A DNA stretch of 24,000 bases. It comes from Buttiauxella warmboldiae (GTDB taxonomy: Bacteria > Pseudomonadota > Gammaproteobacteria > Enterobacterales > Enterobacteriaceae). Positions within the stretch are counted from its first letter, which is position 1. Every line of letters starts with the position of its first letter. The stretch spans positions 28,670 to 52,669 of the forward strand of contig NZ_RPOH01000017.1 of the NCBI RefSeq assembly GCF_003818135.1, written 5' to 3'. Made by a program: the position numbers and the translations under genes. Positions 2,195-24,000 of the stretch are shown here, in pieces. Under the pieces are notes generated by a model. The model searched no databases and was not told the DNA's origin. It worked only from the letters and a program-made list of their open reading frames with translations.

Positions 2195-4164
2195 CGCGAA
2201 TCCCTGAATGGAGACTTTCCTGAGGACGAATCAGCGGGCGACGTTGAATTAAGCTGAGGTAAAGTAAGGTTTTTAGGTTTGATTAATTCATAACGATTTT
2301 CCTTTACGCGTTTACCCAGGTCGCTATTGGTTTCCTGGTAACGTTTTAAGCTCATATCGCGATAAATATTCCCTTCCTGCAAAATGGTAGGGCGAATAAA
2401 TACCATCAAATTCCGCCGGGTATTCTCGACCGAACGATAGCGAAAAAGATTGCCAATATAGGGGATGTCACCCAGTAGCGGTACCCTGGATTCAGATTCA
2501 CTTGAGGTATTATGAATCAATCCACCAAGCACAACAGTTTCGCCACTGCGTACCATTACCGCGTTCTGGATGGTACGTGTGTTAAAAGTCGGGCCGAGTG
2601 ATGAGCCGGTGCTGGAGGCATCAACGCTTGAGACTTCTTGCTCAATTTCAAGCTGGACGGTACCTGCCTCATTAATTTGCGGTGTAACCTTCAGTTTGGT
2701 ACCCACTGTTTTACGTGAAACAGTGTTAAAAACATTGTCTGCTGCTGTCGTCTGCGATCCGGATAGCACCGGCACATCCTGGCCGACATTCATAGACGCT
2801 TCTTTATTATCAAGCGTTACGATGCTTGGTGTGGAGAGGATATCATTTTTCGCATTTGAAGAGAGTGCGCTTAACAATACTCCCCAGTCGCCCCGGAAAA
2901 ATCCCATGGTCACGCCATTAAAGGCACTCAGAGCCGTATTTGAAGCAATGCTGCCTGTTTTTTCCAGCCTATCAAAGTCTGAGGCGGAGGAAAAAACCGG
3001 CAGGCCTGTTTTTGTGAATTGCTGCCCGCCGACTTTACGATTAGCCCACTGGATCCCAAGATTTAAGCCATCCCCATCCTGAACTTCAACAATAATAGCC
3101 TCGACAAGCACCTGAGAACGGGCGACATCAAGTTTGCGGATCACGTTTTCGATGGATTTACGTATTGCAGGGGAGGCGGTGAGAATAAGGGAATTCGTCT
3201 GCTCATCGGCTACAAGATTAAAATCACCATTGGCAGTACCGGGTAACATCCCCCCGCTGGCAATCTGTTGTGGTGCACTACTCATCGGCGCCGCACCCCT
3301 GGTGCTACTTTCTTTCTTTGTTAATTTTTGACTGACGCCGTTTAACACATTAACCAGGTTTTCTGCTTTTGCGTAATTTAAAGCGATAACCTGAGTATTA
3401 TCGCTATCTACGGCATCACCATCGAGACGGGCAACCAGCTGACGGATACGCTGGCGAGCATTCAATGGTCCACTCACGATAATGCTATTTGTTCGCGTAT
3501 CCGCAGTAATCCGTGCGGACGCAGCTGGAAGCTGGGCCGCCTGCTGTCCACCCGGCTGGTAAAGACTTTTTAATACGTTTGCCAGGTCATCGGCTGATGC
3601 ATTGCGCAGGGGAATAACATCCTGATTCTGCTGCCCGTCGCTATCAACCCGAATCACCAGGTCAGCAAGCCGGTTAATCACTGAAGCGCGACCCGTCATC
3701 AGTAATGTATTGGACGGTGCGTATGGTGAAATAGTACCGACACCGGAGTTGTCATTTAATTGGCTAAGTAGAGGTGCAAGTTCGAGTACGGGCACATTTT
3801 GTAAACTCAGGATGCGGGTAATAATTTCATCCCCCTGTGCTTGCAGATGGCTTGTTGTAACAGGCGCACCAGAGGACTTTGCGTTTGCTGAGCGAACAAC
3901 CTTAAACATTCCATTATCCATGGGTATCACTGAATAGCCGTAAATATCCAGCACGCTCAAGAAAAATTGATAATATTGTTGGTCATCGAGTGCATTATAG
4001 CTTCGTACGGATATCAATCCCTGAACGTCTGGTGAAACAATAAAAGTGACGTTAAGATTTTTGCTAACTATGTCAATAAACTCACGAATGTCGGTGTCAT
4101 AAAAGTTAGCATGGAATTTCTCTGCGATTGCAGACATAGTGTTAATAATGAAAAGAAATATCAC
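2191..4164 (-). CDS. gspD: Type II secretion outer-membrane secretin GspD (N-terminus or start uncertain, see findings)
   Basis: 657 aa. It has an N0 domain (FYDTDIREFIDIVSKNLNVTFIVSPDVQGLISVRSY...QYYQFFLSVLDIYGY) and a secretin core ending VPLLGDIPYIGNLFR. It overlaps gspE by 4 nt. The tracked start is a GTG that gives a signal peptide without a basic n-region. Confidence 0.9.
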   Translation of the reverse strand: MIFLFIINTMSAIAEKFHANFYDTDIREFIDIVSKNLNVTFIVSPDVQGLISVRSYNALDDQQYYQFFLSVLDIYGYSVIPMDNGMFKVVRSANAKSSGAPVTTSHLQAQGDEIITRILSLQNVPVLELAPLLSQLNDNSGVGTISPYAPSNTLLMTGRASVINRLADLVIRVDSDGQQNQDVIPLRNASADDLANVLKSLYQPGGQQAAQLPAASARITADTRTNSIIVSGPLNARQRIRQLVARLDGDAVDSDNTQVIALNYAKAENLVNVLNGVSQKLTKKESSTRGAAPMSSAPQQIASGGMLPGTANGDFNLVADEQTNSLILTASPAIRKSIENVIRKLDVARSQVLVEAIIVEVQDGDGLNLGIQWANRKVGGQQFTKTGLPVFSSASDFDRLEKTGSIASNTALSAFNGVTMGFFRGDWGVLLSALSSNAKNDILSTPSIVTLDNKEASMNVGQDVPVLSGSQTTAADNVFNTVSRKTVGTKLKVTPQINEAGTVQLEIEQEVSSVDASSTGSSLGPTFNTRTIQNAVMVRSGETVVLGGLIHNTSSESESRVPLLGDIPYIGNLFRYRSVENTRRNLMVFIRPTILQEGNIYRDMSLKRYQETNSDLGKRVKENRYELIKPKNLTLPQLNSTSPADSSSGKSPFRDSR

Positions 4165-4288
4165 AAATAATAAAAGGTATGTTTTTTCATTCCATATGGA
4201 ATTCTATGAAATATAATGTTTTTTGACTGTACTGCGGGGTGAAATAGGAGTCCAGAAAAAATAGTGCGTAAGTTTACGCATTGACTGG

Positions 4289-4747
4289 TCACTTTTTAAA
4301 GTATGAAGGCGTTTCTATCAGTAGCTCAATATCACCTGTCGGTGTGCTAAGGGTTACGGATTCTTCGTTAATTCGCGCAACAGTAACATTATCAAACATA
4401 TCCAAAGACATCCCACGTCCATAGTTAGACTGCTTATTATTTATCTTCATGATTACCCATGATAAGTCGTTGTTATTACTTTGCAAAATACCTTTTACTG
4501 TAATCATCGATGCGTAAGGAAGGGGGGTGGTACGGGGTTCGATTTGAATCTCTTTTTTGGTGACAAAAAGATTTAGCGTGCCTGGTGGCGAGGTTTTATT
4601 TAGCGGTACTTCATTATAAGGCTGAGTTGGGTTTGACGTTGAAGCAACAATTTCCCACCATTGATATCCTACAATCGTTAAAAGCGTAAGGCTTAACGGA
4701 AATAAAAAATACCATGCCGAAACCGGGATTTGTGGCCATCTTTCCAT
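4289..4747 (-). CDS. Short GspC-like T2SS protein (one N-terminal TM helix plus an HR-like domain, no PDZ or coiled coil)
   Basis: 152 aa, first gene of the minus-strand gsp operon. It has an N-terminal hydrophobic helix (WYFLFPLSLTLLTIVGY). The C-terminal segment (ITVKGILQSNNNDLSWVIMKINNKQSNYGRGMSL...VTVARINEESVTLSTPTGDIELL) resembles the secretin-interacting HR region of GspC. The call rests mainly on position and architecture. Confidence 0.55.
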   Translation of the reverse strand: MERWPQIPVSAWYFLFPLSLTLLTIVGYQWWEIVASTSNPTQPYNEVPLNKTSPPGTLNLFVTKKEIQIEPRTTPLPYASMITVKGILQSNNNDLSWVIMKINNKQSNYGRGMSLDMFDNVTVARINEESVTLSTPTGDIELLIETPSYFKK

Positions 4748-4925
4748 TTGCTGCTCCTGTATAGATTGTCCTCATGGTAAAAAAGACCGCTTAGATTTTC
4801 TATGAATAATATTACTTATCGCTGCGCGTTGAAAAAGCTGACCAACGGCGGTACGGTTACTCTTGGTTACATTTTTCGCGGGGATATTTACATCTCTTAC
4901 TCTATTAACAATAAAGGGCCTTATT

Positions 4926-6448
4926 ATGAAGAAGATAATTAAGCCAGTTAGTTTATTAATACCAATTGTGTTCTCTTCTTTTGCATGGTCGCATGGATAT
5001 GTTGGAGAACATACTGGTAATAACGCTACGTCTTTAAAGCCAGGCACCCTCGCTTCAAGAAATATACTCTGCAAAACAACTATTAATGGGAAGGGAAACA
5101 TCGGATGCGGCAGCGTAATGTATGAGCCGCAAAGTCTGGAGGCTCCAAAGGATTTCCTCAGGATGCAAATGGAAATGTAATGGGGCCAGCAGATGGGCAA
5201 ATCGCCAGTGCAGGGCATGCACAATTTAATGAATTAAATGTCCAAACTTCTTCCCGATGGTATAAAAATCCCGTAAAAGCGGGCCCTGTAGCATTAACCT
5301 GGACCTTTACCGCTAAACACAAAACGGCTCAGTTTCGTTATTTTATCACTCGCGAAGACTGGAACCCCAATCAACCCCTAACGCGCATGTCTTTTGACCT
5401 TAACCCCTTCTGTAGCGCACCTTACGGCGGCCAAATTGTACCTGAAACCTTAACTCACAACTGTACTTTACCGGCACGTACAGGCTATCAAGTGATTTTA
5501 GCCGTATGGGATGTCTCGGATACCGGTAACGCATTCTATAACGTCATCGATGTTGATTTTGGGTCGGGGGCAACTTCGCCTGGCGGGGACAACACGGTGC
5601 CTGCAGCTCAGTGGACCAGTATTGGGCAGATCTCCCCGACGTTGAATCTGAAAGCCGGAGATAAAGTGACACTTCGCGTGTTTGACAGCAATGGCGAGCG
5701 TAGCGATCTGGCACAAACTCTGCTTATTAATAGCGATAGTGAAGGGAATAGTAAAACCTGGTCCTATAACCTTGCGGTTAAAGTTAATAACTCCAGTAAT
5801 GGATTAATACGAGCAGGGCAGATTAACGGCGATAAGATTGAGCCTGTATACGATACTAACAATGTCTATGCTGCCGCTAACAGCCAGATCGTTCGTACCG
5901 AAGTACAAATTGAACAGAAACAGCAGGTAGCATCTACGTTGTCGATAGAAGGCGTCGCATCCTCTATTTCCATCACCCCAGGGCAGACCTTGCCTCTGTC
6001 TGTAGGCGTTAATGTCGGAGGGCAGCCTATGGATATCGAAGCGACTGTTTTCAGCCATGATGGCAATCAGCAGGCTTATTCCAGTAAAAAAGGTGTGAGC
6101 GGTCTGCAAACGCTTAATCTGCAACTGACTAATGTCCAGACCGGGCAATATAATTTGGTCGTTGTGGGTAAAAATGCCCAGGGAGATATCATTCAAAAAA
6201 CGCAGACATTTGTGACAACTTCCTCAGCGGATAATAGAGATAATAATCCAGCATATTCTGCTGTTTTCCCTGAAGGCATTGCAAGTTATGCGGCCGGAAC
6301 TCGCGTATTACAGCCAGCAGACGGAAAGGTATATCAATGTAAGCCATGGCCGTACAGCGGATACTGCAAACAATGGAGTTCTAATGCCAGAGGCTTTGAA
6401 CCGGGTGTCGGAGATTCATGGGAAATGGCCTGGATTAAAGTCGAATAA
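4926..6448 (+). pseudogene. gbpA: GbpA-type N-acetylglucosamine/chitin-binding protein (AA10 LPMO, two middle domains, CBM5/12), disrupted by a 1-nt frameshift near 5147-5150
   Basis: The signal peptide MKKIIKPVSLLIPIVFSSFAWS is followed by the LPMO N-terminal His (HGYV...). The first frame ends at 5178-5180. The rest continues in another frame: (GFPQDANGNV)MGPADGQIASAG...WTFTAKHKTAQFRYFITREDWNPNQPLTR...GYQVILAVWDVSDTGNAFYNVIDVDF. The C-terminal YQCKPWPYSGYCKQWS...W motif is a CBM5/12 chitin-binding domain. Confidence 0.8.
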
Positions 6449-6663
6449 ATTTTTCCGGGTCGGAATGTAATGTTCCGACCCAAATTCATGCGCTGAATAT
6501 TTAATTTTTACTGAAGTCCGCCACGGGTTTTAACGGATTACTGCATCAGATGGGTTTTCATCAGGGAAATAATTTTTTGTCATGGAAAGAAAACATACTT
6601 ACGAATTAGCGGAACATATTCAGTACGTTCGTCCTTTGTTCAATAAAAGAGGAATTTACTCGT

Positions 6664-8520
6664 ATGCATATATGCAATGGTTTTAAAGCCTCCGCGATTG
6701 TGGTGGCACTATTTTCTCCAGCTGTATTGGCTGCGTCGCCGCCCTGGCAGGAGGGGCAAAGCTATAGTGCGGGGACAACGGTAAGCTTTAACGGTAAAGA
6801 GTATCAGGCTCTGGCCGCGCATACTGCGTGGCCCGGAAGCAACTGGAATCCAGCCGATTCAATAACACTGTGGAAAATACTAAATACCTCCACGGAAATA
6901 CCACCACAAGCACCTGCTAATCCAGAGACCATTAATACACCTGCCGGTAGCCAATACCCTACATGGGTAAAAGGGGCTGTTTACACGGGGGGAATGCGGG
7001 TAATTTATAATGGGGTCGTTTATGAAGCAAAATGGTGGACCAATCAGGAATCGCCTGAAGAATCAGGTCAGTGGGGAGTCTGGAAACGAATTGGTGAAGC
7101 AACGCCGCCACCGACAACAGATCCAACCCCAACCCCAACGCCTGACCCAACCCCAACGCCTGACCCAATTCCAACGCCTGACCCAATTCCAACGCCTGAC
7201 CCAGCCCCAACCACAGGAAAACAACTCGGAGCTTACTTTGCCCAGTGGGGAGTTTATGGGCGTAACTATAAGGTAAAAAATATTGATACCAGTGGTTCAG
7301 CTAGTAAGCTTACCTTTATTAACTATGCGTTTGGCAATATCTACCCGCAAAATGGTGGCTATGAGTGCGATATCATCCATCGAGCAGAAGCGGGTAATGG
7401 TGATGGTGGTGATGCTTTTGCTGATTTTTCTAAATCATTTGAGGCAAGTGAAAGCGTAGACGGTAAAGCTGACGCATGGGATCAACCGCTGCGTGGTAAT
7501 TTTGGCCAGTTGAAAAAGCTCAAAGCAAAATACCCTGATATGAAGGTGTTTATTTCGCTGGGGGGATGGAGTTGGTCAAAATGGTTCTCTGCAGCCTCTC
7601 AGACTGATGCCCTAAGAAAACAGCTGGTGAGCAGCTGTATCAATCTCTACATTAAAGGAAATTTACCGACATATGACAATGCTGGTGGTTCTGGCGCCGC
7701 AATAAATGTCTTTGATGGTATTGATATTGATTGGGAATATCCCGTCATCCAGGGGATTGGGTATAATACCGTTAGCCCTGAGGATAAACAGAATTATACT
7801 TTATTACTGAAAGAGTTCAGGGAGCAGTTAGATGCTCTGGGCGTCGCCAATAAAAAACGGTATCCACTGACCGTCGCCATTGGCGCAGGTAAGGATAAAA
7901 TAGCCGCTACTGAGCCGAGTAAATATAGTCAGTATCTGGACTGGATAAACCTGATGTCTTACGACTATAACGGCGGCTGGCAGTATGCAGACCCGACCTA
8001 TGTACCGCCTGGGTCCAGTCGGCCAAATGCCGATCCGAATGCGAAAACGAATTTCCATGCCCCGTTATTTATCGATCCTAATGCACCGGATGCATCTGCT
8101 GCAAATGGTCCGACTAACTCGGTCGACGGTGCCGTTAAAATTCTGCTTGCGCAAGGCGTTACGCCGCAGAAAATTGTTGTCGGTATTCCATTCTACGGAC
8201 GGGGATGGACAGGTGTCCCAAATGTTAGTAATGGTTTGTACCAGAAAGCGTGGCGACCGGCAGCAGGGACCTATGAAACTGGAATTGAGGATTATAAAGT
8301 ACTTAAAAATGCTGCTGGCACATTAAGTATTCACAATGTAACAAAGCAGGCATATAAATTTGATGGATCGACGTGGTGGTCTTATGACACGCCAGCCACA
8401 ATCAAAACCAAAGTTGATTACGTGAAATCCAATAAGTTGGGCGGGGTATTTAGCTGGTCACTTGATGGCGATACCGTAGATGGAGAGCTTATGAATGCGA
8501 TGGGCGAAATGCGTAAATAA
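6664..8520 (+). CDS. Secreted GH18 chitinase with two N-terminal CBM5/12 chitin-binding domains and a Pro/Thr linker
   Basis: 618 aa. It has a signal peptide (...FSPAVLA/AS) and two W/Y-rich CBM5/12-like modules (YSAGTTVSFNGKEYQALAAHTAW..., YTGGMRVIYNGVVYEAKWWTNQ). A PT linker follows, then the GH18 catalytic motif FDGIDIDWEYP. Confidence 0.9.
   Translation: MHICNGFKASAIVVALFSPAVLAASPPWQEGQSYSAGTTVSFNGKEYQALAAHTAWPGSNWNPADSITLWKILNTSTEIPPQAPANPETINTPAGSQYPTWVKGAVYTGGMRVIYNGVVYEAKWWTNQESPEESGQWGVWKRIGEATPPPTTDPTPTPTPDPTPTPDPIPTPDPIPTPDPAPTTGKQLGAYFAQWGVYGRNYKVKNIDTSGSASKLTFINYAFGNIYPQNGGYECDIIHRAEAGNGDGGDAFADFSKSFEASESVDGKADAWDQPLRGNFGQLKKLKAKYPDMKVFISLGGWSWSKWFSAASQTDALRKQLVSSCINLYIKGNLPTYDNAGGSGAAINVFDGIDIDWEYPVIQGIGYNTVSPEDKQNYTLLLKEFREQLDALGVANKKRYPLTVAIGAGKDKIAATEPSKYSQYLDWINLMSYDYNGGWQYADPTYVPPGSSRPNADPNAKTNFHAPLFIDPNAPDASAANGPTNSVDGAVKILLAQGVTPQKIVVGIPFYGRGWTGVPNVSNGLYQKAWRPAAGTYETGIEDYKVLKNAAGTLSIHNVTKQAYKFDGSTWWSYDTPATIKTKVDYVKSNKLGGVFSWSLDGDTVDGELMNAMGEMRK
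7135..7206 (+). repeat. Four tandem 18-bp repeats (CCAACGCCTGACCCAAYY) encoding the PTPDP(T/I) linker of the chitinase
   Basis: Read directly. The copies lie at 7135, 7153, 7171 and 7189. They are in frame and lie inside the CDS. Confidence 0.85.
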
Positions 8521-11974: not shown

Positions 11975-13063
11975 ATGCTGAGTCAGCTGACCCTGCGCTT
12001 TCACAAGAAACTGATCGAGGCACTGAAAGTACGTGCCGGTCGCGAAAATACCTCGGTCAACGCCCTGGCCGAACGCTTCCTCGATGACGGTCTGAAGTCG
12101 GCTGCCACCGGCGACGGTTATTTTCAGCTGATCGCCGATCCGGATGCCACGATCCGTCAGCTGTACCGGCATATCATTCTTGGCCAGACCTTCGGCACGT
12201 CAACGTTCTCCCGCGACGAACTGCGCTTTCTGCTGGCCTACGCCCGGGAGGCCTTCATATGCGGGCATGGCAGACTTGCCACTCTCCCGGCGCTGCGCAC
12301 TCTACTGGAGATCACCCGCGACCTGCTGGCATGGCAGGTCGAGCATGATCACCCGGTGGATGCCCACTACCTGAAGGGGACCTTCCGGCTGCCCGGCGAA
12401 AACTGGGTCGAGGAATTTGACGATTTCCTTGCGACACTGCGTCCGGTCATTGATCAGGGCTATGCAGAGCACCTGCTACGACCACTGGGGAGCGACTGTT
12501 TTACGCTGGCTGACTTTCCCGACGCCGTGCTGGCGGAGATTTTCACGCTCCCTCGACTGAAGGGCATTTTCCCACTGGTCCTGCGCGGGCTGGGCTGGAC
12601 GGATGAAAAGGCCGCGGCTCTGGCGCAAGAGCTACGCCCGCTTATCCCGGCCGTGACGGAAATCCTTGAGGCCGGCACGCTGCGTCTCGAGATCCGCGTG
12701 GACGGCCAGCATCCGGATCAGCGTCCGGGAGCCTGGTATGACACCCCGAAAATACATCTGATCATCACAGGCCAGGAGTTTGTGGTACCGGTGGACTGGG
12801 CAACTTTCACCGAACTGCTGGGTCTGTTCAGCCTGTATGTCCGCTTCCCGGAGGCGCTGGCACACGGCCATCATGGTGAACGCGTCATGTTCTCGCCGCC
12901 AGGCCATGTCATGGCGGACGGTTTTTTTGGCCTCGACGGGCTGCGGATTTTCCTGCCAGCAGAGGGGTTTGAGACGCTGGTTCGGGAGCTGGTAACGCGC
13001 AGCAGCGAAGGCTCGCTGGCTGACGCCCTGTCCGGGCTGCGCTGCCTGTACGGAGATCTGTGA
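11975..13063 (+). CDS. Hypothetical protein with an N-terminal ribbon-helix-helix-like domain fused to ~315 aa of unknown family
   Basis: 362 aa. The N-terminus LTLRFHKKLIEALKVRAGRENTSVNALAERFLDDGL fits the Arc/CopG RHH pattern (beta strand, helix, helix). It has a good RBS, and the stop lies 1 nt before the next gene's ATG. The block is GC-rich and antisense ORFs in it are spurious. Confidence 0.8.
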   Translation: MLSQLTLRFHKKLIEALKVRAGRENTSVNALAERFLDDGLKSAATGDGYFQLIADPDATIRQLYRHIILGQTFGTSTFSRDELRFLLAYAREAFICGHGRLATLPALRTLLEITRDLLAWQVEHDHPVDAHYLKGTFRLPGENWVEEFDDFLATLRPVIDQGYAEHLLRPLGSDCFTLADFPDAVLAEIFTLPRLKGIFPLVLRGLGWTDEKAAALAQELRPLIPAVTEILEAGTLRLEIRVDGQHPDQRPGAWYDTPKIHLIITGQEFVVPVDWATFTELLGLFSLYVRFPEALAHGHHGERVMFSPPGHVMADGFFGLDGLRIFLPAEGFETLVRELVTRSSEGSLADALSGLRCLYGDL

Positions 13064-13064
13064 T

Positions 13065-15290
13065 ATGGCTGATATCAACGCAATGAGGCTGGATCAGTCC
13101 GTCACCTGTCCGGAACAGGATCGTTATGGTTTCCGCTATGTCGCCGCACAGCTGGCACAGTCTGTTCAGGCTATTGGCCGCGAAGGAAGCGCTGTTATCG
13201 GCATTGAGGGGGCATGGGGTTCCGGAAAAACTAGTCTGCTGAACCTGCTGCGTGCGGCACTGGATGAGCAGAAAGAGGACAACACGTTTGTCCTGAGTAT
13301 CTCTCCCTGGCTTGATGGCAGCGACACCAGTCTGGTGGAATCGCTGCTGATACCGGTGGCAGGTATCATTGCCGCAGAGGAAGAGCGCCGCCTTCCCCTC
13401 GAAGAGCGGGAAAGCCTCAAAAAGAAAAAGGGGCTCACCCGGACAGCCCGGACCCTCATGGAATATACCCGAGCGACGGCCCGCCATCTGGCTCCGCTGG
13501 CTCAGGCCGCGACTGTGATCCCGGGCGTACCTGATGCGAGCGGGGCGCTGAACGCGCTATCGGAAACCAGCTGGTTAAAAGAAAAACAAAAAACCGCAGC
13601 GGAGATGCGTACCGAAATCGCAGAAAAAATTGTCGCAATGGATCTCAGTTTTATTATTCTTCTTGATGATCTGGACAGACTGGAGCCTGCGCAGGCTGTG
13701 GAAGTTGTCCGTCTGGTCAAATCCGTCGCCGATTTTCCCCGCTTCCGCTACATACTCTGTTATGACAAGACGGTGCTGGCGCAGGCCATCAAGAAAGGAC
13801 TGGGCGTGGAGGATGGCGAACTTTATCTGCAGAAAATCGTGCAGATTTCCTTCAGCCTGCCAAGACCGGAATCCTTCGATCTGCGCCGGGAATTTCTGGC
13901 CGGCGTCGTAGGGTTGTATGAATCCGTTAACGGAATGTCTCCGAGCGAAGAGTTAATAGATGAGTTAAACAGGGTAACAGATATTTATGGTGCAGCCCTG
14001 AACACCCCCCGTGAAGTCCATCTGGCACTGAATAATCTGCGTTTTAGGTACAGCGGAATACGCGATTACGTCTTTCTGCCGGATCTGTGTTTCCTGCAGC
14101 TTATCCGTACCACCAATTCCGGGCTGTATAACTGGACAGAAGAATATCTGACAGAGCGGGCCATCGTGGAATCCGGGGACGGCCGTGTCAGTGAAGAGGA
14201 GCAAGAACAGCTGGCACAAAAGCTGGGCGAATACTTGTCCAGATTTCGCTCTTCAGAGGCAAAATCTGCAATCTCCCTGCGCCACTGGGTTCCGGGTATT
14301 TCGGGGTATCAGGCTGATAATCTGAAATTGTTCGCTCAGGCGGGCGAGGAAGAGAAAGCGATGATGACAGCCAACCGCCGCCTCGGGAGCACCGCATACT
14401 GGCGTTATTACTTTGCATTTTCCTCACCGCAGAACGTTCTGCCGCCAGCGTATTTTGATGATCTGTTCCGTAAAAGTAGTAATCCCGAAAATTATCTGTC
14501 AATGGCCCGGGAGTTGTTAGGCCGGATCAACAGCAATGGTGTGTCCTCACGTACCTGGTTTGAGCATATTCTGAGCCAGATGACACGACCGATGATAAAC
14601 GAGCGTACAGCATCAGAGTGTTCTGGTCTGCTGACATTCTTCTTTGAAGAGGGCGATGAGATACACGCACGATTCCGACAGAGAAATCACTGGTTTTCCC
14701 GGTATGATCTTGATGTCAACAGCGTGGCTGATCGTCTTCTGAAAAGAATGCTGGATGATGACCGGGCTAAGACGATGAACACCCTGCTTTCACTGACGAT
14801 GAAAGGAACCGCCCTGGTCTGGATTGCGAATTATATCCGCGATTTGCTGTGGCAGAATGGGCTGGCTGGTAACCGGCCCGCCTCAGAGCAGGAACGCGTG
14901 CTGACAAATGATGAGTTGAACCTCGTTCGCAGCAAGTTTAGTGAGCGCCTGAATAATAATAAGCTGATATTGCAGCTTCTGCAGGGAGGTGAGCTGGGAG
15001 GATTCGTCTGGGCCTGTCAGGATATTGCAGGCCAGGAAACACTGATTGCCTGGATTTCACAACACGCTACCTGTGACGAGGTATTTCTGACCTTATTGCT
15101 GAGTCTGCGCTCTCACTGCATCTCCAGCGAGTCCGGACACTATCTATCCCTGAAAATAACGGAAATCGCTCATTTGTTCGGGGGAGAGAAAGAACTGCGC
15201 GAAAGGCTAAGCCGTATTGAAGCTGAAGGTCAGTTTCCTGATCAGACGGATGAAATCAATAAAGCTATCATGCTCAGCAAATCATTCTGA
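13065..15290 (+). CDS. KAP-family P-loop NTPase (apparently soluble)
   Basis: 741 aa. The Walker A motif is VIGIEGAWGSGKTSLLNLL. The Walker B motif is SFIILLDDLDRLEPAQAVEVVRLVKSVADFPRFRYILCYD, the hallmark KAP arrangement. A long helical C-terminal region follows. I see no convincing TM helices in the Walker A-B insert. Confidence 0.9.
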   Translation: MADINAMRLDQSVTCPEQDRYGFRYVAAQLAQSVQAIGREGSAVIGIEGAWGSGKTSLLNLLRAALDEQKEDNTFVLSISPWLDGSDTSLVESLLIPVAGIIAAEEERRLPLEERESLKKKKGLTRTARTLMEYTRATARHLAPLAQAATVIPGVPDASGALNALSETSWLKEKQKTAAEMRTEIAEKIVAMDLSFIILLDDLDRLEPAQAVEVVRLVKSVADFPRFRYILCYDKTVLAQAIKKGLGVEDGELYLQKIVQISFSLPRPESFDLRREFLAGVVGLYESVNGMSPSEELIDELNRVTDIYGAALNTPREVHLALNNLRFRYSGIRDYVFLPDLCFLQLIRTTNSGLYNWTEEYLTERAIVESGDGRVSEEEQEQLAQKLGEYLSRFRSSEAKSAISLRHWVPGISGYQADNLKLFAQAGEEEKAMMTANRRLGSTAYWRYYFAFSSPQNVLPPAYFDDLFRKSSNPENYLSMARELLGRINSNGVSSRTWFEHILSQMTRPMINERTASECSGLLTFFFEEGDEIHARFRQRNHWFSRYDLDVNSVADRLLKRMLDDDRAKTMNTLLSLTMKGTALVWIANYIRDLLWQNGLAGNRPASEQERVLTNDELNLVRSKFSERLNNNKLILQLLQGGELGGFVWACQDIAGQETLIAWISQHATCDEVFLTLLLSLRSHCISSESGHYLSLKITEIAHLFGGEKELRERLSRIEAEGQFPDQTDEINKAIMLSKSF

Positions 15291-17902: not shown

Positions 17903-17921
17903 ATGTAGTTAACCTTTCTGA

Positions 17922-19055
17922 TTAAGATTGCGACAGACTTTGTACACGATGAGCCAGCCGCCGCGCTTCTTCCACATCCCTGAGTTCCCTCGCTTTTTCC
18001 ATCATTTCTGTGGTTGGCTCAGGCAATTTTTCAAAAAACTCCTTAAACTGTTTTCCGACAGACTTCAGGGAAACACTGTCCGTTCTGGCTGTCTTAATAT
18101 TGGTGTAAACAAGGCGGTTAAGAGGTTTTGTCAGCTCTTTCTCTTCCATAAATCGTTTGAAGATCCAGAGATAAATATCAACCAGCTCCAGACCTGCGCT
18201 TTGCGTGCCCGACTGGAAGACAAGCGGTTCAGCCGGCATGTTCTTCATATCCATGACCGGCAAACCAGGCCCGAGTGCCCACGGCTGTTTTCGAATCTGG
18301 TAGTAAAACTCGTTCAGCTCCCGCTGGGTGGTGTTGAACTGTGATTGCTGGTCCACAATGATGTTGGCTTTTCTGTTAGGAGCCCCCAGTCGGGAGCAGA
18401 TACCGTGCAATACGAACTGAAATCCGATCATATTGGGCATGATTTGCAACTTTTCCTTGTTGGCTTTGCAGTTGTACCCCAGCCCTTCAAAGTTGACCAT
18501 CGCCCAGGACAGAGCGTCTGTAATAAGTTCAACTGAACGGGCATCACCCAGAGTATCGACTCGCTGAAGCAGCACACCACAGACCTCGTTGAAAAGAGAG
18601 GAGGAACGTCCATCATGTGCCTCGAGACGGGCACGCCATGCTTTTTCAGCCAGCTCATCATCAAACAGATTTGCCAGATTCAGCAGCAACGGATAGCGCA
18701 GTGGAGTCCAGTAGACACTCCAGGGCACCACCGGATTCAGTCCCTGATCAAACACCTGATCGAAGAACGAAATAATGGCGTGATCCCGTTTAACCACCTG
18801 CCAGACATCAAACCGTATCCGGTGCTTCTTCTGCAGTACAAGCAGTGTATCGATAACTTCATCAAGGCGGTACATGCCCAGTTCTGCGGCATGAAGGCGC
18901 TGTACGTTCAGTTTTTTCCGCAAACTGGCAAGTTCAGCTTCAGCAACCTTATCCAGGTCATCCGGAGAGGAAAGCACGCCGTAAGAAAGTACAGGCTGGG
19001 TACGGTCAAAAAGATTCGGACCGGTATGACCGGTTTCATCCACATAAAAGTGCAT
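17922..19055 (-). CDS. DUF3800-like protein
   Basis: 377 aa. The N-terminal MHFYVDETGHTG matches the (Y/F)(I/V)DE(S/T)G motif. The distal FQSGTQSAGLELVDIYLW matches the xS..S.GLQLAD motif. Both are hallmarks of DUF3800 as I remember it. The RBS AAAGGA lies 7 nt upstream. Confidence 0.65.
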   Translation of the reverse strand: MHFYVDETGHTGPNLFDRTQPVLSYGVLSSPDDLDKVAEAELASLRKKLNVQRLHAAELGMYRLDEVIDTLLVLQKKHRIRFDVWQVVKRDHAIISFFDQVFDQGLNPVVPWSVYWTPLRYPLLLNLANLFDDELAEKAWRARLEAHDGRSSSLFNEVCGVLLQRVDTLGDARSVELITDALSWAMVNFEGLGYNCKANKEKLQIMPNMIGFQFVLHGICSRLGAPNRKANIIVDQQSQFNTTQRELNEFYYQIRKQPWALGPGLPVMDMKNMPAEPLVFQSGTQSAGLELVDIYLWIFKRFMEEKELTKPLNRLVYTNIKTARTDSVSLKSVGKQFKEFFEKLPEPTTEMMEKARELRDVEEARRLAHRVQSLSQS

Positions 19056-19129
19056 TCAAATATCCTTTATCAGGCTGGAGGAAAGCGAAACGGCATAATT
19101 CGAGTGAATGTAAAACCTTCATGTATCTG

Positions 19130-19180
19130 GTTGCAAGTGTTCCGCTTATGGGGGTTTTCGGATCTGAACGTGAAAACAGA
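19130..19180 (+). promoter_or_regulatory. Copy 3 of the conserved leader element (GGGGTTTTCGGATCTGAA at 19151-19168), 145 bp upstream of the kfrA-like ATG
   Basis: GTTGCAAGTGTTCCGCTTATGGGGGTTTTCGGATCTGAACGTGAAAACAGAGAG. The 18-mer is identical to 15397-15414. Confidence 0.55.
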
Positions 19181-19186
19181 GAGCGC

Positions 19187-19270
19187 GTATGTATTTTATG
19201 TATTATTTATTCTGTATGTACTATATGTATTGTATGTATTTTGTGTATTTTTCACTCCGGTTGTACAATA
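19187..19270 (+). promoter_or_regulatory. Array of seven direct TGTAT pentamers plus the TTGTACAA palindrome in the divergent promoter region
   Basis: TGTAT starts at 19190, 19199, 19213, 19226, 19231, 19235 and 19244. A TGTAC lies at 19217 and TTGTACAA at 19261-19268. Confidence 0.5.
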
Positions 19271-19301
19271 ACCTCTTTCCCTGAAAGACCGGAGCCTTTC
19301 C

Positions 19302-19913
19302 ATGACCACGCTATCCCCGGACACCGTCCGCCGCATTGAAGACGCCGCTGCCGCCCTGATCGCTGCCGGTGTCCCGAACCCGACCAACGAGCAGGTCCGC
19401 CAGCACCTCGGCGGCGGCTCGCTGTCCCACATCTCCCCGGTGATGCGCGCATTCCGCGCCCGTCAGCGCGAGCAGGCCGCTGAACAGACCACGACCCTGC
19501 CGGCAGAGCTGGCGCAGTTGCTGACGGGTCAGCTGGGGCTGCTGTGGCAGGCGGCGGTGAAACAGGCTGAAGCCGGGGCTCTGGCGGCGCGCGAGCAGGC
19601 CGACGATGACATTGCCCGGGCCGACCAGGAGCGGGATGAGGCGCTGGCGAAAGTGGCCGCCCTGGAAAGTGAACTGGCGGTGCTGCGGGAGGTGGTGGCC
19701 GAACGTGATCGCCTGCTGCAGGAGGTGCGCGAGCTGCGCGCGGAAGTACTGCCGCTGCGTGAGCAGGTGGCCCGCCTGACCGCCACCGGCGAACACCTGG
19801 CGGCACAGCTGCAGGACACGAAAGCGGAACTGAAGGAGGCCCGGGAGGATGGCCGCGCCCTGCAGATCGAGCTGCTGGCCCTGGCACGCCATGATGGGAA
19901 GGTGAAAAAATGA
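19302..19913 (+). CDS. KfrA_N-like DNA-binding protein with a long Ala/Glu/Arg/Leu-rich coiled coil
   Basis: 203 aa. VRRIEDAAAALIAAGVPNPTNEQVRQHLGGGSLSHISPVMRAFRARQRE matches the KfrA N-terminal DNA-binding domain pattern. The remainder is heptad-like. The gene is very GC-rich, which produces three long spurious antisense ORFs. Confidence 0.8.
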   Translation: MTTLSPDTVRRIEDAAAALIAAGVPNPTNEQVRQHLGGGSLSHISPVMRAFRARQREQAAEQTTTLPAELAQLLTGQLGLLWQAAVKQAEAGALAAREQADDDIARADQERDEALAKVAALESELAVLREVVAERDRLLQEVRELRAEVLPLREQVARLTATGEHLAAQLQDTKAELKEAREDGRALQIELLALARHDGKVKK

Positions 19914-20530
19914 GACAGGAAAGAACATTACGCATACGGGCATTTCGCCGTGCGCTGGAGCTTGGCGCCGGTGAGCGGGCTGAAGAGTGCCGTCATTTTC
20001 ATCGCTGGAAAATGGAACTGAGGAATTTCCCGCACGGCAGCTGCGATTTAGCCAGCAACACACTGGCGCAGTACCTGACAGATACTGAGGGGGGCCACCC
20101 CTGCATCATTTTTATGGAAGGGAACGCAGGCTTTCAGGAAGCTGAAAACTCAACTGTCCATGGCCATGTCATCGTATTGCTGGACGGTGAGTACACCGAT
20201 CTGACGCTGGATCAATTCGAAGAATATCCGGACTACATTCCTTCCGAACCTGTCGAATCTGGCGGGCCGCTTGGTAAGCTGTTACGCAATATCATGAAGC
20301 ATGAAGACCATGTACAAACCCGCCAGGTTGATCTCGATGGTGGCGAAGAGCTGTATGCCTGGTTACGCGATACCGCCAACGAAGTGCTGGCTGCGGATCC
20401 GGAATGGCAGGCCTGGGAACAGTCTATAGCGGAACAAAGGGAAGCGGCCCTTAAGCTGTTCCCATTTCAGTCTAACATGCAGAAAATTGAGTGCGAACAG
20501 GGCCAGGACAGTCAGGAGGTTGCCAGATGA
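19910..20530 (+). CDS. Hypothetical 206-aa protein with an ordered Cys...His...Asp motif
   Basis: ATGA overlaps couple it to both neighbours. It contains FPHGSCDLASNTLAQYL ... VHGHVIVLLDGEYTDLTLDQF. I recognise no family, and a thiol-hydrolase-like triad is only a guess. Confidence 0.7.
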   Translation: MRQERTLRIRAFRRALELGAGERAEECRHFHRWKMELRNFPHGSCDLASNTLAQYLTDTEGGHPCIIFMEGNAGFQEAENSTVHGHVIVLLDGEYTDLTLDQFEEYPDYIPSEPVESGGPLGKLLRNIMKHEDHVQTRQVDLDGGEELYAWLRDTANEVLAADPEWQAWEQSIAEQREAALKLFPFQSNMQKIECEQGQDSQEVAR

Positions 20531-21333
20531 AGATTTATCATTACACTGACCTGAACGGCCTGAACGGCCTGAACGGCCTGAAGGGCATCATCGAATCAGG
20601 CTCACTGTGGGCGACGCACTTTTCCTTCCTCAATGACAGCAATGAACTGATTCACGGCATGAACTGCCTTGAGAATGCCCTGCAGCACCTGAGGGACGAC
20701 TTTAACCCGAAAACCCTTAAGTTCATCGAACAGGCACTGACGCACTTCAGAATGCACCGGGCTGTTCATGTCTATAACCTTTCTTTCTGTCTCGAACCCG
20801 ACCTGTTAAGTCAGTGGCGGGGTTATGGCAGCTCTCAGGGTGTGTGTCTGGAATTTGATGATGAAGAACTGATTGCCTCCCTGCAACTCACGCACTACCA
20901 AGTGTTTAAAAACCGGGTGATCTATACCAAAGAGGATTCCACGGTTGAAGCCCGGAACGAAATCCTCGCCTTTTTTCGTCAGCCAGAGGTTCAGGCGGCA
21001 ATAAATGCAGATGCAATGCATGAGATGATTCAGGCAACCAAACTGGCACACAGCCTGCCGCCTTTTTTCAAGAATGACGGTTTCAAAGAGGAGCAGGAGT
21101 TCCGGATGGTAATTCTCCCGGACAGACCTTTTGAGGGAGTCAATTTTCGTGTCAATGACAGCGGTCTGGTGCCATATCTGATCATTAAAGCAAAAGATAA
21201 GCTGCCACTGAAAAACATCAGAATTGGTCCCCGCAGTAACAGAGCAATGATGATGGATGGGATTTCATTCCTGTTACAGAGCAGGGGGTACACCAGTACA
21301 CGGATTTCGTTTACTGAGACGCCGTTCCGGTAA
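20527..21333 (+). CDS. DUF2971-family protein
   Basis: MKIYHYTDLNGL...IIESGSLWATHFSFLNDSNEL ... YNLSFCLEPDLLSQWRGYGSSQGVCLEF ... FKNDGFKEEQEFR fits the DUF2971 pattern. I prefer the ATG at 20527 (RBS AGGAGG at 20512-20517, ATGA overlap) to the tracked upstream start at 20491. Confidence 0.75.
   Translation: MKIYHYTDLNGLNGLNGLKGIIESGSLWATHFSFLNDSNELIHGMNCLENALQHLRDDFNPKTLKFIEQALTHFRMHRAVHVYNLSFCLEPDLLSQWRGYGSSQGVCLEFDDEELIASLQLTHYQVFKNRVIYTKEDSTVEARNEILAFFRQPEVQAAINADAMHEMIQATKLAHSLPPFFKNDGFKEEQEFRMVILPDRPFEGVNFRVNDSGLVPYLIIKAKDKLPLKNIRIGPRSNRAMMMDGISFLLQSRGYTSTRISFTETPFR
20551..20586 (+). repeat. In-frame 9-bp tandem repeat, CTGAACGGC x3 plus a degenerate CTGAAGGGC (LNG LNG LNG LKG)
   Basis: Read directly. 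The copies start at 20551, 20560, 20569 and 20578. Confidence 0.9.
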
Positions 21334-21368
21334 ACTCAATTAAGAAGTACAAACTTCAAGGGATCAGT

Positions 21369-22109
21369 ATGTTGAATAAAGTTTCACAAATTAATTTGGC
21401 CAAAATCTTGGCTGAAAAATTTAACGAAGGTGACTGGCAGGAGCTGTTTGCTGTTACCGATTGTGAAGATGTTCCGGAAGGGCTGTATAAATTCTACCAG
21501 CATGTTCACTGGGACAACCCGGAGCTGAAAGGGATGGCCATCTTTGCCATAGAAAGCACTCTGGCCAGGGACGCTGATAACCTTTCTAAAATCTGGGCGC
21601 TGGATAATGTTCAACGCTATATCAACAATGCCAATACTGAGTTATTCAATGAAATAAAGGACATTGTTAATCAGAATGGGCAAAGAAACGTTTCCGCAGC
21701 TCCAGTGAAAAATGTGAACGAAAACATTTACCAGGCTTTAGAAGATGCGGAAGTGTTGCTTCAGAAAAATGGACCACACCGGGCTTATGATCGTGTCCAT
21801 ACAGCTCTTCATGCTTCATTAAGACAAATGTGTGCAAACCATGGAATTGCGACTAATAGTACAAATAATAATGTTCCAGGATTGCTTTCCCTGATAACTG
21901 CACATCTCAAGGCGCTGCCGGATGATGGAAGAAACGAAGATGTGTTTAAAATGTTGAAGTCATCTGCCGCAATACTACATGGAATCAATAACCTGCGTAA
22001 CAATTACAGTATGGCCCATCCTACTGAAAATTTGCTTAATGAGGCCGACGCGCGTTTTGCCATAAATCTGGTTCGTTCCATTATGACTTATATTGATGAA
22101 TTGCTTTAA
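21369..22109 (+). CDS. Abi_C (abortive infection C-terminal domain)-like protein
   Basis: 246 aa. The C-terminal ALHASLRQMC...LLSLITAHLK...MLKSSAAILHGINNLRNNYSMAHPTE...ADARFAINLVRSIMTYI matches the Abi_C LRN..G.aH signature as I recall it. The RBS AAGGGA lies 6 nt upstream (spacer TCAGT). The gene is AT-rich relative to the upstream genes. Confidence 0.65.
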   Translation: MLNKVSQINLAKILAEKFNEGDWQELFAVTDCEDVPEGLYKFYQHVHWDNPELKGMAIFAIESTLARDADNLSKIWALDNVQRYINNANTELFNEIKDIVNQNGQRNVSAAPVKNVNENIYQALEDAEVLLQKNGPHRAYDRVHTALHASLRQMCANHGIATNSTNNNVPGLLSLITAHLKALPDDGRNEDVFKMLKSSAAILHGINNLRNNYSMAHPTENLLNEADARFAINLVRSIMTYIDELL

Positions 22110-22167
22110 TTTTAATAAAAATATGAGGCTCACAGCGAACAGATAGAGTATCAACGAAGAAGTGAAA

Positions 22168-22208
22168 TACGGCCAGCATTTCGAACTCTGGCCGTACTCT
22201 TATTGTTT
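22168..22208 (+). terminator. Rho-independent terminator of the four-gene operon
   Basis: TACGGCCAG-(11 nt)-CTGGCCGTA forms a perfect 9-bp stem followed by CTCTTATTGTTT. Confidence 0.7.
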
Positions 22209-22228
22209 AACAATTGATGATCACCTGT

Positions 22229-22260: not shown

Positions 22261-22486
22261 GGCGAAAACCTACGCTAAGATGTGTGATTCATAGACATCA
22301 TTTCACTTCGTGCAGCTGCTGCTTGAGAAGATTGCAAAATGGCATCTGAATCGATCGCGGTTTGGCATCACAATCGATCATGATTTGGCACGCATCCGAT
22401 CACTGATTGGCATCCTGTCGCTCACTCCGGGAATTAACTCTTTCCATCACAGTCTTCATTGCTGTTTTAAGCCAATGGAGATATCG

Positions 22487-22978
22487 ATGTCCAAAAAGAG
22501 AAAAGCCAGGAGTTCCATGGAAACCTGTTTTAAGATCCTTCAGCTTAAGTTCGGCCAGAAGCTGACCAACCGTTGCATCGCACTGACGCTGAAAATCAGT
22601 GCATCAACCGTTTTTGAGGTGCTCTCCCGCTTTAAAGCCACGTCTCTCCCATGGCCCCTCCCTGAAGCCATATCCCACGCGGCCCTTGAAAAGCGTATCT
22701 TCCCGGCCAAAAGTGCCTCTGCGTCAGAGCTGGTTATGCCTGACCTGCTTCACTTCGATACTGAGATGAGAAAGCCAGGCGTGACGCGCCAGCTGCTGTG
22801 GATGGAGTACAAGGCTCAGGCCGGTGAGCTGGCTATGGGGTACTCCCACTTCTGCCGCTGCTATCGGGAGTGGAAAAAAACGCGCCGCCTCTCCATGCGC
22901 CAGGAGCACCGCGCCGGTGAAAAGCTTTTTATCGACTTCTGCGGCCCGACGGTCCCCGTCGTTAACCCGGATACTGGA
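22487..22978 (+). pseudogene. istA: IS21-family transposase IstA, N-terminal ~160 aa only
   Basis: MSKKRKARSSMETCFKILQLKFGQKLTNRCIALTLKISASTVFEVL...GVTRQLLWMEYKAQ...HRAGEKLFIDFCGPTVPVVNPDTG, after which the frame degenerates. The DDE domain is missing. Confidence 0.8.
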
Positions 22979-23234
22979 CGATCTGGGTCTGGAACCGCTG
23001 AGCAACGCGCAATGTAACGACCTGCTGGAGATAATCGAAGACCGCTACGGACAAAGCAGCACCATCGTAGTAAGCCAGTTCCCGGTAGACAAGTGGCACG
23101 GTCTGATGGAGAACCCGACAACGGCAGATGCGATCCTGGACAGGCTGGTGCATAACGCGCACAGGCTGGTACTCCAGGGAGAGTCAATGAGGAAAAATAA
23201 ACCGGCAGTGGAAAGCGATGAAAAAACAGGTTAA
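22971..23234 (+). pseudogene. istB: IS21-family helper ATPase IstB, C-terminal ~85 aa only
   Basis: ILDDLGLEPLSNAQCNDLLEIIEDRYGQSSTIVVSQFPVDKWHGLMENPTTADAILDRLVHNAHRLVLQGESMRK. This covers Walker B onward. The junction with istA' lies at ~22970-22978. Confidence 0.8.
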
Positions 23235-23333
23235 AAAGCAGTAGGAAAAGTTAAGTTCCCGGTTGATCGAATGGAAGCGAATCGCTGATCGAACTTCGAT
23301 GCCAATCCGTGATCGAATAGAGCGGAATACGCA

Positions 23334-23486
23334 GTTCATCCGGCGAAGCTTATCCAGTTGCGCCTGCAGATAGTCTATTTCGCGCTCCCGGTTGCTCAGC
23401 TTTTCCTGCAGGGTGTGGATCAACGCTTCCTGTTCAGCCAGGCGCTGTTTCAGCAGAGGGATGTCGTCAGAAGAGGTGTCGTTCAT
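23334..23486 (-). pseudogene. IS66-family transposase (TnpC) N-terminal leucine-zipper fragment, truncated by the IS21 remnant
   Basis: MNDTSSDDIPLLKQRLAEQEALIHTLQEKLSNREREIDYLQAQLDKLRRM. The expected continuation (LFG..SEK) is replaced by IS21 end sequence. Confidence 0.7.
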
Positions 23487-23524
23487 AAGCCCGCATTTTA
23501 CCAGGCTTATTCTGCGACGCTCAC
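23487..23524 (-). repeat. Possible IS66-family left inverted repeat (minus strand GTGAGCGTCGCAGAATAAGCC...)
   Basis: It lies directly upstream of the N-terminal TnpC fragment, at the point where the other TnpC fragment loses homology (after GSDHGGER). It suggests one IS66-type element inserted into another. Confidence 0.35.
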
Positions 23525-24000
23525 CTCCGTGATCGCTCCCGAAGAAGATATAGTTTTTCTTTCCCAGACATACTGCACGTAATGCCCGTTCTGCCGCGTT
23601 GTTATCAGGCTCTGCCAGCCCATCATCACAGTAGTAGCACAGCGCATCCCACTGGTTCAGAGCATAAGCGAACGCTTCACCCAGACGGGATTTTTTCGAC
23701 AGCGTCGCGCTTTTTTCTATCAGCCACTCATGCAGGGATGCCAGCAGCAGCTTGCTTTGGGATTGTCTGGCGGCCAGTCGCTCAACTGCCGGAAGGCCGC
23801 GTATGGCTTCTTCTATAGCGTACAGTTCACCGATACGCTTCAGTGCTTCCTCTGCTGTCGCCGTTTGGGTGCTTATATACACATCGTGGATTTTTCTGCG
23901 CGCATGGGCCCAGCAGGCCGCTTCTGTTAACGGGCCACCTTCACGCTCTGCGCTGAACAACCGGTCATAACCCGCGAAGGCATCCGCCTGCAGCACACCA
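23525..24000 (-). pseudogene. IS66-family transposase (TnpC) central/C-terminal fragment, continuing beyond the window
   Basis: LQADAFAGYDRLF...EAACWAHARRKIHDV...LYAIEEAIRG...RQSQSKLLLASLHEWL...LSKKSRLGEAFAYALNQWDALCYYCDDGLAEPDNNAAERALRAVCLGKKNYIFFGSDHGGER is the conserved IS66 TnpC core. Confidence 0.8.

Follow-up and report, generated by a model that had tools for sequence, protein, structure and literature searches.

We analysed a 24,000-nucleotide (nt) stretch of the Buttiauxella warmboldiae contig NZ_RPOH01000017.1 (the window; all coordinates are positions within it, and residue numbers refer to the gene copies of the window), focusing on a block of four genes that an initial annotation, made from the sequence, had described as a translationally coupled operon. 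The listing of open reading frames (ORFs) confirmed four co-directional frames on the + strand: a kfrA-like gene (19302-19913, 203 aa), a second gene termed ORF2 (19910-20530, 206 aa), a DUF2971 gene (20527-21333, 268 aa from its ATG) and an Abi gene (21369-22109, 246 aa). The listing lengthens the frame of the third gene to a GTG at 20491, and its ATG start lies at 20527. Both stop/start overlaps read as ATGA, at 19910-19913 and 20527-20530, the 35-nt spacing between genes 3 and 4 is present, and Shine-Dalgarno-like elements were recognized by eye before 19302 (GGAG), 20527 (AGGAGG) and 21369 (AAGGGA). Through the ATGA overlaps, translational coupling of genes 2 and 3 to the gene before each of them holds. 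The block is thus real and was correctly described; it is a four-gene plasmid operon, whose genes would share a single transcript.

The GC content drops along the operon as had been noted, from 0.693 through 0.533 and 0.488 to 0.412 from genes 1 to 4, with 0.386 in the leader and 0.490 in the whole window. The three antisense ORFs over kfrA are likewise present (227, 250 and 96 aa); they are an expected by-product, because kfrA is a coiled-coil gene with a GC content of 0.80 at third codon positions. The KfrA_N, DUF2971 and Abi_C domain calls all exceeded the Pfam cut-offs. Purifying selection acts on all four genes, with ratios of nonsynonymous to synonymous divergence (dN/dS) of 0.09-0.28 against relatives; therefore, all four are real, constrained genes.

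The first gene encodes a protein with a KfrA_N DNA-binding head (PF11740, residues 10-125; E = 2e-21 and 77.2 bits, the cut-off being 26.1) and a putative coiled-coil tail, and is predicted to be an autorepressor. Residues ~80-195 gave many weak matches to coiled-coil families (SMC, Rad50, LmuB and JetC). The PADLOC matches of the protein to LmuB, JetC and ZorA were considered as meaningful hits and rejected as coiled-coil noise. The dN/dS ratio of kfrA is 0.11-0.18.

Our analysis revealed an array of seven 9-bp direct repeats in the kfrA leader (19190-19252, + strand), identified by repeat finding, as a putative KfrA operator. The seven units follow each other in perfect register as TGTATTTTA, TGTATTATT, TATTCTGTA, TGTACTATA, TGTATTGTA, TGTATTTTG and TGTATTTTT; five of the seven start with TGTATT and one with TGTACT. 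Four copies of the phased motif TGTAYTNNNTGTAYT are present in the window, all within the array, against 0.00 expected from shuffles. It was present in 17 of 43 fetched loci, only 50-130 nt upstream of kfrA and always on the kfrA strand, and the 26 loci without it include every locus where a kfrA-like sequence was not found. The motif is likewise missing from two loci (L033 and L042) whose only KfrA-like sequence is a short, divergent N-terminal fragment.

The KfrA operator of plasmid RA3 consists of five 9-bp repeats, TGTATTGTA, which overlap the promoter kfrAp with its -35 element TTGTAT (PMC7783346). KfrA binds it cooperatively, and the repression index exceeds 200 (PMC7783346). In the window array, the RA3 9-mer is found without mismatch at 19226-19234. 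A window-wide search for this 9-mer with at most one mismatch returned 6 sites against 4.1 expected, which is no enrichment; only the phased array is significant. Since motif and period agree, the leader array is, by analogy, a putative operator of the type defined by experiment for RA3 KfrA.

The window KfrA resembles the KfrA proteins of RA3 (IncU) and R751 (IncP-1) in its KfrA_N head, in a coiled-coil-type tail (weakly matched here) and in its location in a plasmid maintenance region. As in RA3, kfrA is the first gene behind a promoter with iterated 9-bp direct repeats of a common core, although the overlap with the promoter is conjectural here. The tail is short, giving a protein of 203 aa compared with 355 aa in RA3, and the RA3 operator is arranged as three plus two inverted repeats, whereas the window array has seven units in one orientation. 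No KfrB/KfrC-type helical gene is adjacent here, and the window kfrA is instead ATGA-coupled to enzyme genes. Binding and repression, demonstrated experimentally for RA3 KfrA, are predicted for the window protein from its sequence.

A putative operon promoter (19241-19269, + strand) could be placed at the 3' end of the array, where it would overlap the operator; it combines a -35-like TTGTGT (19241-19246), a 17-nt spacer and a -10-like TACAAT (19264-19269). Most of the leaders compared carry a TAC[ACG]AT element at the -10-like position. Just upstream of the array lies an imperfect inverted repeat, GTTCCG-N14-CGGATC (19139-19164, no strand), which reads GATCCG-N14-CGGATC in relatives and occupies the same position in most kfrA leaders compared, being weaker in the pO157 copy. 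The repeat contains Dam GATC sites, the left arm in the window being GTTCCG.

At the other end, the strong terminator of the initial annotation was borne out as a plausible one and overstated as to strength. A probable intrinsic terminator (22168-22209, + strand) comprises a hairpin at 22168-22196, with a 9-bp stem and an 11-nt loop, and a U-rich tail; the hairpin folds at -16.7 kcal/mol (z = -3.3 against shuffles), and the T-run after it is broken. The consensus terminator scan did not call this hairpin because its loop is 11 nt. Homology with relatives extends to 22193. Hits of the consensus promoter/terminator scan internal to the operon were at or below chance.

ORF2 (+ strand) encodes an alpha/beta protein with a predicted Cys45-His86-Asp97 catalytic triad, transglutaminase/papain-like and nearest to YunG; its sequence is 100% identical to that of a B. 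warmboldiae protein. The initial annotation had suggested that its GSC, HGHV and Asp residues might form a thiol-hydrolase-like triad, and C45, H86 and D97 proved invariant in 59 sequences at ~20% identity. The GSC (C45) and HGHV (H84 and H86) residues are present as described; the invariant histidine is H86, not H84, which varies among 33 ORF2 homologues in which C45, H86 and D97 do not. A profile search of 1.84 billion representatives returned 199 relatives, among them a remote family whose members are ~150 aa long. The only invariant columns in the 59-sequence alignment were P41, C45, H86, D97 and T99, giving the motif FPxGxC ... H ... (I/T)D(I/L)T.

In the AF2 model of ORF2 (pLDDT 89.2, pTM 0.83), helix 45-60 begins with C45, and two successive strands contain H86 (strand 85-91) and D97 (strand 94-97). 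As modelled, the order and secondary-structure context of the predicted triad are well supported as a papain/transglutaminase arrangement. ORF2 shares with YunG and transglutaminase-like enzymes a Cys at the start of a helix and a His and an Asp on successive strands, invariant across the wider family. The profile of YunG matched ORF2 at E = 0.11; among the 59 remote relatives, matches, mostly sub-threshold, were to YunG in 46 (best 2.3e-5), Transglut_core3 in 11, Transglut_core in 8 (best 2.8e-7) and DUF2026 in 6. Weak Foldseek matches of the model were mostly papain-fold or transglutaminase-like (vasohibin, protein glutaminase, PMT with its C3 domain, a Josephin-type clippase and an NAT-like amide synthase). 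On the other hand, ORF2 itself stays below every Pfam cut-off and has no significant PDB neighbour. No match was obtained in NCBIfam or PHROGs, in PDB sequence searches with two ORF2 profiles (A1 and A2; nothing significant), or by tblastn against phage genomes, and no ORF2 paralogue was found elsewhere in the window. The possibility that ORF2 evolves fast by positive selection was rejected, since its dN/dS is ~0.2 with saturated synonymous divergence (dS), which indicates replacement by an older allele.

The third gene (+ strand) encodes a DUF2971 protein predicted from Pfam, motifs and a structural model to be a DarT-like ADP-ribosyltransferase (ART) of the H-Y-E clade. The domain was detected with E = 1.2e-11 and 46.2 bits against a cut-off of 22 (PF11185), and phrog_1762 with E = 7.7e-25. 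Across 35 DUF2971 sequences, down to 29% identity, H5-Y6-T7, S95, W97-R98-G99-Y100 and E189-x-E191-x-R193 were invariant, in agreement with the H / Y / ExE motif description of ARTs in PMC12522546, where DUF2971 is assigned to an H-Y-E clade close to DarT. The model (pLDDT 90.4) returned DarT as its top three PDB matches by Foldseek (E 2.9e-3 to 1.1e-2, probability 0.90-0.98), followed by a Tpt1-type enzyme of the ART fold. This lends modest, independent support to the ART assignment.

A DUF2971 protein, Aristaios, is a validated single-gene antiphage system of Lactococcus (PMC11381338). The window protein is comparable to Aristaios and DarT in its DUF2971 domain above the Pfam cut-off, its H-Y-E residues and its best PDB matches to DarT, and its relatives stand alone on plasmids or among prophage accessory genes, as expected for a single-gene system. 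The comparison with Aristaios is made through the shared DUF2971 family. The window gene differs from both in being embedded in a KfrA-led operon, and the Pfam scan found no match to the DarG macrodomain among the block proteins, so the block is not DarTG.

Near the N-terminus of the DUF2971 protein, an LNG tandem repeat (20551-20577) has three copies compared with one in E. coli relatives, and the lowest model confidence falls in this region (residues 11-15, pLDDT < 50). We also considered whether the gene is broken in E. coli relatives, where PGAP marks a pseudogene; this was rejected, as the frame is intact at 262 aa. RefSeq/PGAP splits the gene into a pseudogene stub and a 582-nt gene at L001 9368-10156 and L002 11314-12102. 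This annotation is an artefact, probably seeded by the truncated pO157 ORF.

The fourth gene (+ strand) encodes a predicted AbiJ-family protein with an AbiJ_NTD5-like N-domain and a C-terminal Abi_C (HEPN) RNase domain. Abi_C (PF14355) scored E = 2.3e-13 and 50.5 bits against a cut-off of 24, with the LRNNYSMAHP motif present, and AbiJ_NTD5 (PF18865) scored E = 1.6e-5 and 25.2 bits, just under its cut-off of 26.7; two homologues carry PF18865 in precomputed annotation. R210, N211 and H217 (Rx6H) were invariant in 18 sequences. AbiJ-NTD5 was defined on the E. coli protein w0043, and the AbiJ architecture has been proposed to combine a sensor with a suicide RNase (PMC3710099). The fourth gene shares with the AbiJ family the Abi_C/HEPN domain with its invariant Rx6H, the NTD5-like N-terminus, a PADLOC AbiJ match and the existence of stand-alone relatives. 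It is very distant from Lactococcus AbiJ, with an NTD5 score below the cut-off, and its AbiJ-like role is proposed on sequence grounds.

The distribution of the block bears on whether the four genes belong together. The initial annotation had argued from their tight coupling that they function together, and had named as a refutation orthologues that are never adjacent elsewhere. They are adjacent elsewhere: 80 plasmids from Escherichia, Klebsiella, Salmonella, Citrobacter and Enterobacter, as well as 56 complete E. coli genomes, carry the whole block at ~90% identity, typically with ccdAB-resD and repFIB or sopAB as neighbours. The inference of joint function is nevertheless not supported, because the genes dissociate beyond one lineage and each of the three downstream genes is found alone. 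At least 80% of kfrA+ORF2 is present on 420 plasmids, compared with 83 plasmids for DUF2971+Abi; in pO157, kfrA-ORF2 is followed by a DUF2971 stub of ~200 nt.

A scan of species-representative genomes gave 15 ORF2 loci, with a full adjacent kfrA upstream in 8, a full DUF2971 gene in 3, Abi in 2 and DUF3800 in 4; all four block genes occur in only 2 of the 15. In the 8 loci with kfrA directly upstream, its protein identity is 72-95%, even where the next gene is down to 40-47%; at the nucleotide level, kfrA identity is 90-92%. Serratia plasmids (ORF2 45-49%) have kfrA-ORF2 coupled by ATGA, with unrelated genes beyond. Atlantibacter (ORF2 64%) has kfrA-ORF2-DUF2971, then a 45-codon Abi stub and a 321-aa ORF, and S. 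fonticola (ORF2 64%) has kfrA-ORF2, DUF3800 and a second kfrA with the same leader, ATGA-coupled to a 349-aa ORF. Across the loci, kfrA has three different ATGA-coupled partners downstream. Other cargo behind this leader and kfrA can be seen at L014 7300-8969 (S. fonticola) and L012 6442-7560 (Atlantibacter), and the ORFs of such cargo, with lengths of 321, 349 and 251 aa among others, had no match in Pfam or PADLOC.

The downstream genes also occur apart from kfrA. A Cronobacter ORF2 (57%; L016 1653-5579) directly follows a pifC-like/PifA-like pair without kfrA; its PifA-like protein is 41% identical to the PifA of the window, which hints that a PifA-ORF2 association may recur. ORF2 homologues of E. 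coli (61%) and Pantoea (59%) lie in other islands, and ORF2 relatives also occur alone. DUF2971 relatives at 43-53% identity are lone plasmid genes, and one of these relatives is carried by a P2-like prophage, where portal/terminase genes and gpA flank it and HicAB is adjacent; a 34% relative adjoins QatC/QatD and a 46% relative is on a Pantoea plasmid without an Abi partner. Relatives of Abi at 30-75% identity stand by themselves, and their surroundings contain no copy of the three other block genes. Because the genes separate beyond one closely related lineage, the four-gene adjacency, which is confined to that lineage, reflects shared descent. Together with its RA3-type repeat operator, kfrA forms the conserved backbone element, and it is the remaining genes that vary. 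The earlier impression that a KfrA gene is out of place in this operon is not supported.

Of the Abi gene, hundreds of plasmids, many of them F-type, have kept just the final ~250 nt (82 codons). These remnants are still annotated as "abortive infection family protein" and form a widespread trace of the block.

Divergence differs between the genes in a manner consistent with recombination. Against relatives, dS was 0.27-0.32 for kfrA in every comparison, 0.34-1.3 for ORF2, 0.15-0.28 for DUF2971 and 0.18-0.62 for Abi. The earlier suggestion of assembly from parts of different origin agrees with the GC steps, with per-gene dS values of 0.15-1.3 and with the alternative cargo in relatives. The segment 17891-19148, containing a DUF3800 gene and a spacer, matches L002 13006-14262, which lies downstream of Abi in E. 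coli CT02; in S. fonticola, the DUF3800-leader-kfrA2 side is collinear with 17912-19889 of the window and the kfrA1-ORF2 side with 19290-20704. By these alignments, the window is recombinant relative to the S. fonticola and E. coli arrangements. Citrobacter meridianamericanus has the layout of the window, DUF3800 and then the four genes, preceded by a second kfrA-ORF2b unit. Second ORF2 paralogues (42-47% identity) also stand behind a full or truncated kfrA at the same locus in L029 4926-5475, L030 433-1520 and L034 7333-8132. The paralogues point to tandem kfrA-cargo units and to recombination between such units. The conserved leader and kfrA likely provide the homology for cargo exchange, and exchange across them would account for the GC steps and the mosaic divergence.

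We are inclined to read the block as an autorepressed KfrA expression module that carries enzyme genes shuffled by recombination and autonomous one by one, most likely a stack of anti-phage cargo, and not as a new four-part system. A single promoter at the 3' end of the seven-repeat TGTATT array would drive the operon. A KfrA oligomer would bind the array and repress its own promoter, by analogy with RA3 KfrA, and this autorepression would keep the four-gene transcript low and buffered, with translation of genes 2 and 3 presumably coupled to the preceding gene via ATGA. The three downstream enzymes would be self-contained and act in parallel, forming no joint complex: ORF2 as a transglutaminase/papain-like Cys enzyme, the DUF2971 protein as a DarT-like ADP-ribosyltransferase and the product of gene 4 as a sensor N-domain joined to a HEPN RNase. 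The DUF2971 and AbiJ-type proteins belong to families with demonstrated or long-proposed roles in abortive infection, and they would most likely be abortive-infection effectors, inactive until a phage cue. The cargo behind the leader and kfrA would be swapped by recombination. The anatomy, conservation of domains and motifs, modular distribution, operator-type repeats and purifying selection were observed directly; the repression, the single transcript, the enzyme activities and the anti-phage role are inferred.

Several observations weigh against this explanation. The consensus promoter scan did not report the promoter at 19241-19269, whose -35 element matches at only 3 of 6 positions. The DarT matches of the DUF2971 model are weak, with TM-scores of only 0.34-0.44, and PADLOC gave the DUF2971 protein only a weak PDC-S31 match. 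ORF2 had no match in PADLOC or above the Pfam cut-offs, and its model had no Foldseek match in PDB or BFVD at E <= 0.001, the best being E = 0.074. The PADLOC AbiJ match of gene 4 (1.9e-7) is only partial. The kfrA-ORF2-DUF2971 coupling is kept in a lineage whose ORF2 is 64% identical, and hundreds of plasmids have kfrA-ORF2 intact; KfrA and ORF2 could accordingly be functional partners and not just transported together. The distant neighbourhoods sampled number two or three per gene.

The alternative that fares best is that of a plasmid-maintenance module, which we regard as possible and rather unlikely. KfrA and ORF2 would then be a backbone pair acting in stability or positioning, like KfrA-KfrB/KfrC of IncP-1 and IncU, with DUF2971 and AbiJ as addiction toxins or mere passengers. 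The ATGA-coupled pair is widespread, being present on 420 plasmids and in 8 of 15 species loci, and its position among ccdAB, resD, repFIB, sopAB and parAB genes would suit such a role, as would the finding that RA3 KfrA and its operator are required for plasmid stability and that KfrA contacts partner proteins (PMC7783346). However, ORF2 is a predicted alpha/beta Cys-His-Asp enzyme and not a helical partner of the KfrB/KfrC type, its relatives occur without kfrA, on chromosomes and after PifA-like genes, and kfrA is coupled to unrelated genes as well.

The initial annotation had favoured genes that function together; on that view, the four would form one integrated defence system, with KfrA as a DNA sensor and the three enzymes acting jointly. 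We consider this improbable. Two ATGA overlaps between one leader and one terminator, the retention of all four genes (~90% identical) by 80 plasmids and 56 E. coli genomes, and purifying selection on all four genes are what such a system would predict. Yet the full copies all belong to one close lineage, with DUF2971 and Abi at nucleotide identities of at least 85%, beyond which the genes dissociate. The block is often eroded, as in the pO157 stub and the 250-nt Abi remnants, position 4 is taken by other genes in relatives, and per-gene dS is discordant.

A bolder version, which we likewise hold to be improbable and which is to be taken as one joint claim, treats the leader and kfrA as a dedicated docking and expression platform of enterobacterial plasmids, behind which conflict genes (ORF2 alleles, the 349-aa ORF, DUF2971, AbiJ and the 321-aa ORF) would be inserted by recombination and coupled in translation, and adds KfrA-ORF2 as a new DNA-sensing conflict system. 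KfrA titrated off its operator, or polymerising on incoming DNA, would unleash the YunG-like enzyme against phages or rival plasmids.

It is very unlikely that the second and third genes form a toxin-antitoxin pair, with the cysteine hydrolase ORF2 neutralising or reversing the ADP-ribosyltransferase DUF2971 as DarG counters DarT. The order of the genes would permit it, as DUF2971 comes directly after ORF2 and the two are translationally coupled; there is also the resemblance of DUF2971 to the toxin DarT, and ORF2 is kept where DUF2971 is truncated, like an orphan antitoxin. But DUF2971 relatives at 43-53% identity lack an ORF2-like neighbour, DUF2971 is missing from most ORF2 loci, ORF2 is not a macrodomain, and Aristaios functions as a single gene. 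We give hardly any credence to secreted or contact-dependent toxins directed against competitors or hosts, which PMC12522546 suggests for some DUF2971 proteins and "papain-like dermonecrotoxins" and which would fit the papain-fold and ART domains common in polymorphic toxins: the Pfam scan, which included no dedicated prediction of signal peptides, reported no secretion or toxin-delivery domain in the four proteins, the block shows neither an evident cognate immunity gene nor an evident link to a secretion system, Tox-PLDMTX is not matched by ORF2, and the neighbours in other genomes are defence or plasmid genes.

The combination of genes had not been recognised as a named system, and indeed no name exists; the same combination has nonetheless already been reported. 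Fig. 8 of a 2025 survey of ARTs (PMC12522546) includes an operon variant with DUF2971, Abi_C, KfrA_N and a papain-like toxin, for which a "coordinated stress response" is proposed. It shares the four domain types and is almost certainly the E. coli or Salmonella orthologue of the window block. That description is one paragraph, without modularity, operator repeats, triad conservation or the recombination mosaic. New here are the leader repeat operator, the wider family and triad of ORF2, the DarT match of the DUF2971 model and the uniform kfrA as against the swapped cargo. The published "dermonecrotoxin" (Tox-PLDMTX, PF15645) label for the second gene is not supported: ORF2 had no match at E <= 1, only one of the 59 remote relatives had one (E = 0.026), and PMT (2ebh) was at rank 25 (E = 1.3) in the Foldseek search.

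Hundreds of plasmids of clinical relevance, F-type and related and with pO157 among them, carry the block or its remnants. Should the reading of an autorepressed KfrA module with exchangeable cargo be correct, plasmid backbone regulators such as KfrA would control anti-phage cargo and thereby link plasmid maintenance to host immunity. It would also provide a concrete operator-repressor pair for an IncF-associated KfrA and define a conserved Cys-His-Asp family, ORF2/YunG-like. Two entries of the record are corrected, namely the "dermonecrotoxin" label of the second gene and the split or pseudogene annotation of DUF2971 in RefSeq E. coli plasmids.

The window as a whole is a plasmid-like mosaic. 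A DUF3800 gene (17922-19055, - strand; PF12686, 1.6e-7) is a recurrent neighbour of the kfrA module, lying upstream and divergent in the window and downstream and convergent in E. coli relatives. PifA is the T7-exclusion gene of the F plasmid. A pifC-like gene followed by a full-length PifA (PADLOC 1.2e-297) occupies 11975-15290, 4 kb upstream of the block, which sits in a defence-rich plasmid segment including PifA. Directly after the terminator, 22310-24000 contains overlapping fragmentary ORFs, parts of which recur on unrelated plasmids; they look like what is left of insertion sequences, and the conserved block may have its right-hand edge here. At the opposite end (731-8520), gspE and gspD of Type II secretion adjoin a GbpA-like lytic polysaccharide monooxygenase and a GH18 chitinase bearing CBM5/12 domains; this cluster for chitin utilisation and secretion belongs to the same mosaic element.

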